Assembly (NCBI GenBank): GCA_963761335.1 | Contig: CAVXGR010000025.1 | Coordinates: 53,670 to 117,669, forward strand | Origin: an uncultured delta proteobacterium | GTDB lineage: Bacteria > Desulfobacterota > Binatia > HRBIN30 > BPIQ01 | Length of the DNA: 64,000 nucleotides | Direction of reading: 5' to 3' | Shown here: positions 46,019 through 47,242 of the stretch, piece by piece | How the letters are laid out: every line of letters starts with the position of its first letter | Numbering within the stretch: the first letter of the stretch is position 1 | The notes under the pieces: generated by a model | Database searches by the model: none | The model's input: only the letters and a program-made list of their open reading frames with translations | What the model was told of the DNA's origin: nothing | Translations under genes and position numbers: made by a program

Positions 46019-47242
46019 GTGTCAGAAACCAATTGGAAGAAATACGAGCTCGAGATCACTCCGGAGATGATCGCCGGCGTCGAGGAGTACAACGACCTGA
46101 TCGTCTCGCGGAGCTTCATCGACGACCGCGGCATCTTCTGGAATCAGGACAGCGGCGACGACTACCTGCCGTCGCTGCGCAGCGGCCTGCAGATCCAGTG
46201 GACCTACTCGAAGCTGTGCAACTTCAGCTGCAATCACTGCTTCAACGGCTCGAGCCCGGCCTGGAAGGGATTCGAGGCGGACCCCTTCCGCATCGTCGAC
46301 AACATGCTGACGGCGAAGCCCTACAACGTCTGTCTGTGCGGCGGCGAGCCGTTCACATGGAAGCCCCTCTACGCGATCATCGAGAAGATGCGGGCCGGGG
46401 GCATCCCCCTGGTGAGCACCGTCAGCAACGGCTACCTGGCCACACCCGACAACATCAAGCGCCTTCACGATGCCGGCCTGACCAACATGCAGATCAGCCT
46501 GGACGGCATCAACGACGAGCAGTTCATCGAGCTGCGCAAGAAGAAGGACGGCCTGGGGAAAGCGGCGGCAGCCGTGGAGGAGTGCCTGAAGCACGACTGG
46601 TCGGATCTCTCCGTTTCCTTCACGCCGACGAAGAGCAACGTCGGCAGCTGGAAAGACTTCTGCCACTACTGGGCCGGGCGCGGGGTGACCCACATCCGCA
46701 CCCAGCCGTTCATGCCGATCGGCACCGGCACCGGAGCCTTGGCTCTGATGCCGACGGACGAGCAGTACCTGCGCTTCCACATGGACACCGTCGACCTGAT
46801 CGAAGAGCTGCCGGGATGCTTCATCGACTGGGGGGATCCGCTCGAGCACGTGTGGTTCTACACCCGCACTCCGGCGTCGCCGTGGAGCTACGGCATCCAG
46901 ACCGACGGCTGGTTCGAGCTCTCCTGCTACATCCCGGTGCTCCTCGGCAACGCCCTGGAGCATTCGATCGAGGAGTACTGGGCGCGCAGCCCGAAGAAGC
47001 TGTGGAACGCGCCGATCATGCGCCGCTTCGCCGCCTCGCTGATCAACATGGAGGGGATGTCGAAGCTCGACCTGCCGATCTATCGGGAGGAGTCGCTGCA
47101 CATCGACATCTTCGACGACGAGCAGCTGGATCTGTTCATGACCACCGATGACCTGGAGCAGCTCCGTGCCCTGAGCGCCGAGAACCTCGAGCGCTTCCAT
47201 GCCCGCTTCGCGCGAGAGCCGGGAAGCGCCCAGAGCGATTGA
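46019..47242 (+). CDS. Radical SAM enzyme with a degenerate SPASM/twitch region, candidate peptide epimerase
   Basis: CNFSCNHC, GGEP, SNG and QISLDG; C-terminal GIQTDGWFELSCYIPVLLGN..SIEEYW has a single Cys; RBS aggag. Confidence 0.8.
   Translation: MSETNWKKYELEITPEMIAGVEEYNDLIVSRSFIDDRGIFWNQDSGDDYLPSLRSGLQIQWTYSKLCNFSCNHCFNGSSPAWKGFEADPFRIVDNMLTAKPYNVCLCGGEPFTWKPLYAIIEKMRAGGIPLVSTVSNGYLATPDNIKRLHDAGLTNMQISLDGINDEQFIELRKKKDGLGKAAAAVEECLKHDWSDLSVSFTPTKSNVGSWKDFCHYWAGRGVTHIRTQPFMPIGTGTGALALMPTDEQYLRFHMDTVDLIEELPGCFIDWGDPLEHVWFYTRTPASPWSYGIQTDGWFELSCYIPVLLGNALEHSIEEYWARSPKKLWNAPIMRRFAASLINMEGMSKLDLPIYREESLHIDIFDDEQLDLFMTTDDLEQLRALSAENLERFHARFAREPGSAQSD

Follow-up and report, generated by a model that had tools for sequence, protein, structure and literature searches.

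A predicted radical SAM enzyme with a Cys-depleted SPASM/twitch-like tail, proposed to act as an iterative peptide Cα epimerase

We analyzed a 64,000-nucleotide stretch of contig CAVXGR010000025.1 from an uncultured delta proteobacterium (the window) and, within it, the gene at 46019-47242 on the plus strand, which encodes a predicted radical S-adenosylmethionine (SAM) enzyme with a Cys-depleted SPASM/twitch-like tail. By sequence and by analogy with known pathways, the enzyme is probably an iterative Cα epimerase of a polytheonamide-like pathway for peptides that are made on the ribosome and then modified post-translationally (RiPPs), in which it would make D/L-alternating β-helical peptides, and its SPASM/twitch-derived lineage is apparently distinct from PoyD/OspD and from EpeE. 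More tentatively, we propose that the family represents a third, independently derived radical SAM peptide epimerase lineage, in which a SPASM/twitch maturase lost its auxiliary clusters and acquired a CxC H-atom donor and a partner acting in trans, composed of a RiPP recognition element (RRE) and a GNAT-like domain, and that it defines a widespread class of D/L β-helical peptides. The enzyme is read as an iterative Cα epimerase because the precursor peptide holds its Asn residues in one register, the neighboring methyltransferase has a relative specific for D-Asn, and minimal clusters of this kind contain no rival epimerase.

The precursor gene (43523-43825, +) is preceded by an AGGAG ribosome-binding site and encodes a 100-residue peptide with the leader motif YxxPxL (MYESPRL), a V/A/N core at about residues 28–68, and a hydrophilic 30-residue tail. 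In the core, VNVNANANANANANAVANVNVAANVNAAAAANAVAIV, all 12 Asn residues occupy even positions between 30 and 60, all 11 Asn–Asn spacings are even, and positions 30, 36, 42, 48, 54, and 60 form an unbroken i+6 Asn ladder. Seven of the 12 lie in tandem (AN)n, where the parity is automatic, and the other five hold the register across nonrepetitive spacers. In aeronamide, D-Asn25, 31, 37, and 43 are placed on a single face of the β-helix (PMC9060474), and the six-residue GNINVN unit of polytheonamide is described as one turn, with an Asn ladder at 16, 22, and 28 (PMC11285071). The window precursor matched nothing in Pfam or NCBIfam, only about 25 residues precede its core, its leader is of neither the NHLP nor the Nif11 type, and no second peptide of this type is present within the window.

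Short peptides of one family adjoin homologous radical SAM enzymes in other genomes. We compiled 32 such precursors, 12 of them (including that of the window) with an adjacent AerE-like gene and 20 without, and scored the C-terminal 45 residues of each. The cores are rich in V/A/I/L/G, frequently carry Trp or Tyr near the C-terminal end, and in most cases show neither Cys nor any conserved reactive side chain over the scored region, which leaves the backbone Cα-H as the only universal target. A thioether, sactipeptide, or ranthipeptide function was ruled out, as Cys is missing from most of these cores. The median number of core Asn residues is 11.5 where an AerE-like gene is adjacent versus 2 in the others (Mann-Whitney p 8.6e-6, kinship ignored), and even Asn–Asn spacings make up 118/118 in the former versus 22/30 in the latter, with the rows of this count not independent and several of them close relatives. 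The L028 precursor is also Asn-rich, with 10/10 spacings even, in a locus that shows no methyltransferase and is cut by a contig end.

The methyltransferase encoded at 48140-49345 (+) has AerE (7rc2) as its top PDB match (E 3.7e-10), and a profile of ten cluster methyltransferases matched AerE at 2.5e-35 over residues 7–374 of 384, with the next entry at 6e-17. The AerE catalytic residues Y137, D141, and N231 correspond to Y149, D153, and N239 (the Asn of the NPP motif) and are invariant in all ten cluster proteins, and AerE F234, which follows NPP, is aligned to a Leu in the window protein. Judged by these motifs and matches, the protein is a true AerE/PoyE-family Asn side-chain N-methyltransferase. 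D-Asn is given as the only form of Asn that AerE methylates and epimerized PoyA as required for full methylation by PoyE in the report on the AerE structures (7RC2–7RC6; PMC9060474).

Both of these genes and the enzyme gene belong to an operon of about 17 kb (43523-60573) in which all genes lie on the plus strand, mostly with overlapping stops and starts. Its gene content, given in full below, is thus that of a polytheonamide/aeronamide tailoring set with the enzyme in place of PoyD/AerD. The iterative epimerase role that an earlier note on this DNA had suggested fits this context, as the cluster is polytheonamide-like and the enzyme is the sole non-B12 radical SAM enzyme in it; no other candidate epimerase was seen in the operon in Pfam and NCBIfam scans covering most but not all ORFs (open reading frames) of the window. 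From a genome-contig scan that returned 473 encoded relatives, 77 loci were kept, of which 61 hold a family member at E<=1e-20 (tblastn queried with window and locus proteins), about 25 of these being near-identical Collinsella loci, and 16 are outgroup loci. A homologous ATP-binding cassette (ABC) exporter is present in 50/77 loci and a B12 radical SAM enzyme in 6/61 family loci; an AerE-like methyltransferase is adjacent in 12 loci and lies about 5.7 kb away in 4 Collinsella loci, which were not counted as adjacent. The minimal Asn-type cluster, found in a Lachnospiraceae genome (L003), consists of the ABC exporter, precursor, radical SAM enzyme, partner, and AerE-like methyltransferase, with regulators at its flanks, and in the minimal clusters nothing else qualifies as a candidate epimerase.

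Some further features of the precursors were observed. Residues 66–100 of the window precursor (43718-43825) form a hydrophilic C-terminal extension of about 30 residues (…CHYTPLGSDDPRAAEEAAEGGPPRRKKLEAGG) that is absent from most related precursors and is possibly removed as a follower peptide. Many precursors from loci without a methyltransferase (L031, L013, L065, L035, L001) end in sequence rich in Trp/Tyr at alternating positions, for example …AAWVWCDPYW, …WSQTWTWNN, and …INWNANHTYNWNW. Such alternating Trp/Tyr ends resemble the interfacial Trp anchor of gramicidin A. In Caldisericum sp. AR60 (L020; 1468-5648 and 11923-12018), a single fused gene for a radical SAM–PqqD–GNAT protein (647 aa) and a bPH_5+DUF1648 gene are surrounded by six tandem precursor genes; these all begin MKNYESPTIE but continue into very different hydrophobic cores, an arrangement that suggests one enzyme for many cores.

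The enzyme ORF starts with GTG at 46019, stops with TGA at 47242, and encodes 407 residues; a TAGGAG ribosome-binding site lies 8 nucleotides 5' of the GTG, and the G+C content at third codon positions is 0.92. Residues 64–201 match Pfam Radical_SAM (PF04055) at E 2.1e-16, with 60.9 bits against a cutoff of 29.5. Membership in the superfamily is further marked by the CxxxCxxC motif (CNFSCNHC, 46217-46240, +), whose C67, C71, and C74 are the predicted ligands of the radical SAM [4Fe-4S] cluster, by the invariant G108-G109-E110, and by a core fold similar to many radical SAM structures (Z>20). An inactive pseudo-enzyme was ruled out, all cluster and SAM motifs being invariant. SPASM (PF13186) gave no match at E<=0.01 in Pfam. 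The enzyme falls into no curated family, because none of the 40 SPASM, twitch, and MoaA-type models that it hit in NCBIfam reaches its cutoff (the top one scored 56 bits against 425). Its ESM Atlas clusters are named only generically as 'radical SAM/SPASM'. Past the core, the tail has only two cysteines, C267 and C303, the latter being the single Cys of the element GIQTDGWFELSCYIPVLLGNALEHSIEEYW (residues 292–321). No PqqD match was obtained for the enzyme in Pfam or NCBIfam, and its N terminus has no RRE fold, since residues 1–55 are modeled at a low predicted local distance difference test score (pLDDT) with a lone helix at 15–28. The earlier note was therefore right in reporting a canonical CxxxCxxC, a single Cys in the C-terminal element, too few tail cysteines for an auxiliary cluster, and no N-terminal RRE.

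The Cys pattern was followed through 97 homologues found at E<=1e-3, of which 95 were aligned after the two weakest (P0096 and P0097) had been dropped. C67, C71, and C74 are present in 91/95, with gaps at these columns in the rest. C105 and C107 are each present in 94/95 and form, with the residues that follow (C105-L-C107-G-G-E, 46331-46348, +), a CxC directly before the GGE SAM-binding motif that we propose as an H-atom donor or thiyl relay. The family signature WGDPLEH (residues 271–277, 46829-46849, +; WGDPxxH in the alignment) opens the degenerate SPASM-like domain, with W271, G272, and D273 in 94/95 and P274 and H277 in 95/95, and Y304, P306, and G310 are likewise nearly invariant. The remaining cysteines are scattered: C189 occurs in 10/95, C215 in 22/95, C267 in 12/95, and C303 in 16/95 homologues, and 29 of the 92 homologues that keep WGD[PA] have no Cys after it. 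As an outgroup control, we used 15 of the 16 more distant radical SAM proteins from the same genome scan (L060–L077, with L075, for which no ORF carrying the cluster motif was listed, left out). These SPASM enzymes have 4–12 tail cysteines, lack WGDP, and have no Cys at the positions of C105 and C107, the residue directly before GGE being S, T, G, L, or I. Five divergent family members that were checked show CxCGGE and 0–3 tail cysteines, with WGDP in four and the fifth (L045) a cut ORF. By these counts, the depletion of tail cysteines is a family trait and not chance; loss of the auxiliary ligands and gain of the CxC beside GGE co-occur in the family, and both would therefore be ancestral to it.

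The closest solved relative of the enzyme by sequence is SkfB, to which residues 47–357 align by phmmer at E 2.3e-8. In this alignment, C303 stands opposite the Cys of the SkfB 'TPC' hairpin, which corresponds to Cys351, an auxiliary-cluster ligand, and the C-terminal 'KCEAKNCKC' of SkfB stands opposite Cys-free enzyme sequence. An AlphaFold2 model of the enzyme was built from 88 homologues (pLDDT 90.9), and its superposition on SkfB by VIA-align (about residues 32–352) gave a Z of 24.9 over 288 residues with a root mean square deviation of 3.7. The corresponding Z values were 23.2 for SuiB, 21.6 for viperins, 21.1 for anSME, 20.8 for MoaA, 17.6 for EpeE, which ranked below 31 other entries, and 16.1 for TigE (8vpo). 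In the model, the enzyme tail is a SPASM/twitch-type fold stripped of its cluster cysteines and aligns with the twitch hairpin of SkfB. SkfB, the top match in both sequence and structure, differs in having an auxiliary cluster, in forming a Cys-to-Cα thioether, and in carrying an N-terminal RRE, whereas cluster cysteines are missing from the enzyme family, whose substrates are mostly without Cys; SkfB is cited for peptide Cα-H abstraction in the reference list of PMC13469106. The kinship with PoyD or EpeE that the earlier note implied was not demonstrated; in structure, EpeE scores below SkfB, SuiB, viperin, and anSME. EpeE (YydG of Bacillus subtilis) resembles the enzyme as a radical SAM protein of SPASM/twitch lineage that acts on hydrophobic residues. 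It is described, however, as keeping within its T-SPASM domain an auxiliary [4Fe-4S] cluster and as using Cys223 and Asp210 (PMC13012085), whereas the tail of the enzyme has too few cysteines for such a cluster, and EpeE carries out two epimerizations versus about twenty proposed here.

The gene that follows (47260-48159, +) encodes the partner protein; its ORF opens at 47239, with the likely start at the ATG at 47260 behind GGAGG. The window protein alone has no match in Pfam, and PqqD is matched by 4/6 partner homologues tested. A profile of seven partner sequences matched SpeG-type GNATs (E 4e-5, positions 152–276), and its best RRE match, a weak one, was the lasso RRE TbiB1 (E 0.017, positions 39–107). 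The partner model contains strands at 12–17, 21–26, and 36–38, helices at 40–50, 55–76, and 91–107, and a GNAT-like C-terminal half, with a pLDDT of 80–92 over residues 41–90 and 62 overall; in a Foldseek search with this model (pLDDT 62), the GNAT domain dominated and no RRE proteins were among the matches listed. Natural fusions of a radical SAM enzyme with PqqD, with or without a GNAT-like end, occur in P0034, P0104, P0107, P0174, and L020. On the homologues, the profile, and the model, the partner is a predicted protein with an N-terminal PqqD-like RRE and a C-terminal GNAT-fold domain. No acetyl-CoA-binding Q/RxxGxG/A motif was seen by eye in the GNAT-like domain of the window protein, and that domain may therefore be noncatalytic. 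The partner gene adjoins the radical SAM gene in 50/61 family loci versus 0/16 outgroup loci, and in Clostridium felsineum DSM 6424 p330 (L083), the RefSeq names are 'PqqD family protein', 'radical SAM protein', 'hypothetical protein' (MDYESPMI...), and 'ABC transporter'. The dependence on an adjacent RRE protein in trans that had been proposed for the enzyme agrees with the PqqD matches of the homologues, the TbiB1 and GNAT profile matches, and the fusions. The putative ligand of this RRE is the motif YxxPx[LIVMF], found near the N terminus of 23/32 precursors and, as YxxPxL, at residues 2–7 of the window precursor; the same motif is described as the lasso-peptide leader motif bound by B1 RREs (PMC6784204). 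The predicted RRE of the window differs from lasso B1 proteins in being fused to a GNAT-fold domain and in serving a radical SAM enzyme, while lasso B1 serves a protease and a cyclase.

Taken as a pathway, the PqqD-type RRE of the partner is predicted to bind the precursor leader YxxPxL (MYESPRL), with the partner docking on the enzyme, as suggested by RRE homology, gene adjacency, and the natural fusions. SAM would be cleaved by the single [4Fe-4S] cluster on C67, C71, and C74, whose motifs are present in the sequence, and the resulting 5'-deoxyadenosyl radical would take Cα-H from alternate residues of the core, all 12 Asn among them. The planar radical would then be quenched on the opposite face by a protein H-atom donor, most likely the C107/C105 pair before GGE. 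In SPASM maturases, the auxiliary clusters are credited with roles in electron transfer and in binding the substrate (PMC13012085), and proteusin epimerases are described as having one cluster only (PMC13012085, PMC13469106). Epimerization is redox-neutral and would need no auxiliary cluster; given the hydrophobic backbone common to the substrates and the lack of auxiliary clusters, redox-neutral abstraction and return of Cα-H fits best. In the later steps, the AerE-type enzyme would N-methylate D-Asn, the four B12 enzymes would C-methylate side chains, and the ABC transporter would export the product, which is predicted to be a D/L-alternating β-helical membrane peptide with Asn ladders. On the barrel strand, the residues at −1 and −3 relative to GGE should face the active site. 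In anSME, the residue at −1 to GGE (Q64) is near the substrate.

Several points weigh against the epimerase reading. The strict even spacing of Asn would suit an all-L amphipathic β-strand equally well, and the need of the window methyltransferase for D-Asn is extrapolated from AerE and PoyE, of which PoyE is reported in a review to act on nonepimerized Asn too, less efficiently (PMC11285071). Owing to the near-identical Collinsella loci, the locus counts are not independent and are inflated. The assignment of C105/C107 as donor rests on conservation and on the analogy with anSME, and the enzyme family appears to be set apart from PoyD/OspD on indirect grounds, namely the leader type, the separate RRE, the pattern of conserved cysteines, and the reported absence of PoyD from the Pfam-based radical SAM set. 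The top structural matches, SkfB (24.9) and SuiB (23.2), are cross-linking maturases, and even the viperins (21.6) outscore EpeE (17.6), the one solved epimerase. Finally, the B12 enzyme QCMT is reported to abstract Cα-H and to epimerize peptides in vitro as a side reaction (PMC13469106), and the operon has four B12 enzymes.

The structural ranking bears on an alternative that we consider unlikely, in which the enzyme makes some other radical change to the aliphatic core, such as Cβ/Cγ desaturation, formation of cyclopropylglycine as by TvgB/TigE, or a novel backbone change, and D-residues are absent or made otherwise. The nearest solved folds are indeed those of cross-linkers and other nonepimerases, the cyclopropylglycine synthase TigE (8vpo) is matched at Z 16.1, and Val-rich repeats are described as substrates of cyclopropylglycine synthases (PMC9062424, PMC10878394). 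However, the oxidative cross-linking and cyclopropanation enzymes of the superfamily retain their SPASM clusters, of which the enzyme family has none, no side chain is conserved across the family cores, and the AerE-type methyltransferase together with the Asn register indicates D-Asn.

It is improbable, to a greater degree, that the enzyme belongs to the PoyD/OspD proteusin epimerase family as an ordinary, though divergent, member, with the same function and no new lineage. The pathways are alike in several respects: as for PoyD, OspD, and AerD (of polytheonamide, landornamide, and aeronamide), iterative L-to-D inversion is predicted at every second residue, a single [4Fe-4S] cluster is present (by sequence only in the case of the enzyme), the neighboring proteins include an AerE/PoyE-like N-methyltransferase and PoyB/C-like B12 C-methyltransferases, and the core is V/A/N-rich with Asn at i+2 and i+6. 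The polytheonamide and aeronamide proteusins share with the window the single Asn register with i+6 ladders, the V/A-rich core, and the N- and C-methylation enzymes. Against this, PoyD/OspD/AerD substrates have an NHLP leader of about 100 residues, whereas the leader here is a 25-residue YxxPxL leader that is neither NHLP nor Nif11, and recognition is placed on a separate RRE and GNAT protein. No LanM-like dehydratase was seen in the window, which differs from the polytheonamide and aeronamide clusters also in the hydrophilic precursor tail, the accessory genes (bPH and β-lactamase-fold hydrolase), and the epimerase family itself. PoyD, whose family is InterPro IPR030950, is stated to escape the Pfam/InterPro set of radical SAM proteins used at RadicalSAM.org (PMC9477430), whereas the enzyme matches PF04055 at 2e-16. 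One strictly conserved Cys, C372, is reported as common to about 70 PoyD homologues (PMC8326336). The PoyD type thus described has a single conserved C-terminal Cys; the enzyme family instead conserves the two cysteines before GGE and is recognizably SPASM/twitch-derived. Two 2026 papers on radical SAM peptide epimerases name the PoyD/OspD group and EpeE only (PMC13012085, PMC13469106).

Within the reading of the enzyme as an epimerase, the identity of the H-atom donor is a separate matter. The earlier note had assigned this role to C303, the Cys of ELSCYIP (46925-46927, +), which is kept in 15/16 of the closest homologues (P0001–P0016, with P0013 the exception; 58–100% identity), of which P0002–P0016 are metagenomic. 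C372 of PoyD, moreover, stands at a similar distance past CxxxCxxC as C303. Across the family, by contrast, C303 is found in only the 16/95 members given above, Pro is the commonest residue at that column (36/95), the position is that of a former auxiliary-cluster ligand in SkfB, and members without C303 occur in clusters of the same type that hold the same precursors and methyltransferase. The assignment was not sustained: on this distribution, C303 is a relic of a subfamily at a vestigial twitch-ligand position, C107 and/or C105 is the more likely donor, and we give little credence to C303 as a catalytic donor even in the close subfamily. That one or several of the four B12 radical SAM enzymes carry out the epimerizations, with the enzyme as an accessory, is scarcely credible despite the QCMT side reaction noted above, which is described as probably uncontrolled solvent quenching (PMC13469106), as 55/61 family loci show no B12 enzyme and yet keep the radical SAM enzyme, partner, and precursor.

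In a quick maximum-likelihood tree, 41 nonredundant family proteins including the window enzyme form one clade (SH-aLRT 99), in which the window enzyme has a long branch and falls where the relationships within the family are not resolved. By its relatives, the enzyme is placed in a large clade without a name that comprises Clostridia, Collinsella, Caldisericota, and others and is common in gut bacteria. When 1.84 billion representatives were covered in an all-against-all HMMER scan, the E<=1e-30 threshold was reached by 59 proteins and that of E<=1e-10 by 384, and the source names of ten homologue clusters are all generic. A search of the full-text literature, to which subscription journals did not belong, found no description of the enzyme family or of D/L-type peptides with a YxxP leader. 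The cassette has relatives in many metagenome-assembled genomes of gut Clostridia and, among cultured bacteria, in Collinsella aerofaciens and Clostridium felsineum, so that the chemistry can be put to a direct test in tractable organisms. The enzyme gene is single-copy in its 6.26-Mb genome and gave no match at E<=1e-30 in 400 other genomes sampled from its phylum, and the G+C content falls to 0.637 at 46001-48000 of the window (enzyme and partner) versus 0.67–0.71 in the flanks. These three features fit acquisition by transfer and suggest that the enzyme gene was acquired horizontally.

If the proposed function is correct, the family would add a third kind to the radical SAM peptide epimerases, one whose different recognition logic and candidate H-atom donor would widen the mechanistic picture, and it would offer a new tool for placing D-residues in gene-encoded peptides. 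Polytheonamide-type β-helical channel peptides would then extend beyond the NHLP proteusins that sponge symbionts and a few proteobacteria make, and ribosomal analogues of gramicidin or polytheonamide would be made in gut Clostridia and Collinsella, in Caldisericota, and, in the present case, by a high-GC bacterium. The window cluster would be the most heavily tailored version, with N-methyl-D-Asn ladders and four C-methyltransferases.

The remaining genes of the operon are described in order, all on the plus strand. Between the precursor and the enzyme lie genes for a 214-residue protein with no assigned function (43842-44486), which has no Pfam or NCBIfam match and no counterpart in the 77 related loci; a membrane protein with a bPH_5 domain (44497-45048; PF10882, 7.7e-19) that has a possible immunity or accessory role and bPH_5 counterparts in 4 related loci; and a 320-residue protein with no assigned function (45045-46007), which has only a subthreshold Pfam match and a hydrophobic stretch near either end, by eye a possible signal peptide and C-terminal anchor. 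Downstream of the methyltransferase, three predicted B12-binding radical SAM C-methyltransferases of the PoyB/C type are encoded at 49342-51276, 51287-53227, and 53237-55162, with TIGR03975 scores of 587, 599.5, and 587.3 bits against a cutoff of 281.85, and a fourth at 58639-60573 (560.9 bits; start inferred from the translation). An ABC exporter with fused transmembrane and ATPase domains (55159-56874; Pfam ABC_membrane and ABC_tran) has directly 3' of it a gene for a 187-residue protein (56875-57438), hydrophobic by eye and without a family match, whose HEGCH sequence (HExxH) would allow a role as a metalloprotease, possibly for the leader.

The gene at 57410-58642 encodes a class-A β-lactamase-fold serine hydrolase of 410 residues with SxxK, SDN, and KGG motifs, nearest to ORF12 of the clavulanate cluster (Beta-lactamase2, 1e-18; PDB 2xep, 1.3e-28), and the gene overlaps, at its stop, the start of that for the fourth B12 enzyme. 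Such a hydrolase was not found in the related loci; it could be a maturation peptidase, an esterase, or a protein for self-protection against a peptide with D-residues. In one related locus, that of an uncultured Bacteroides sp. (L025, 13366-16681), two B12-binding radical SAM genes outside TIGR03975 lie 3' of the family cassette, whose precursor has an aromatic-rich core. Directly 5' of the window precursor, 41841-43508 (+) encodes a 555-residue protein with a dockerin-type domain and long Gly-rich (GGxGG) repeats.

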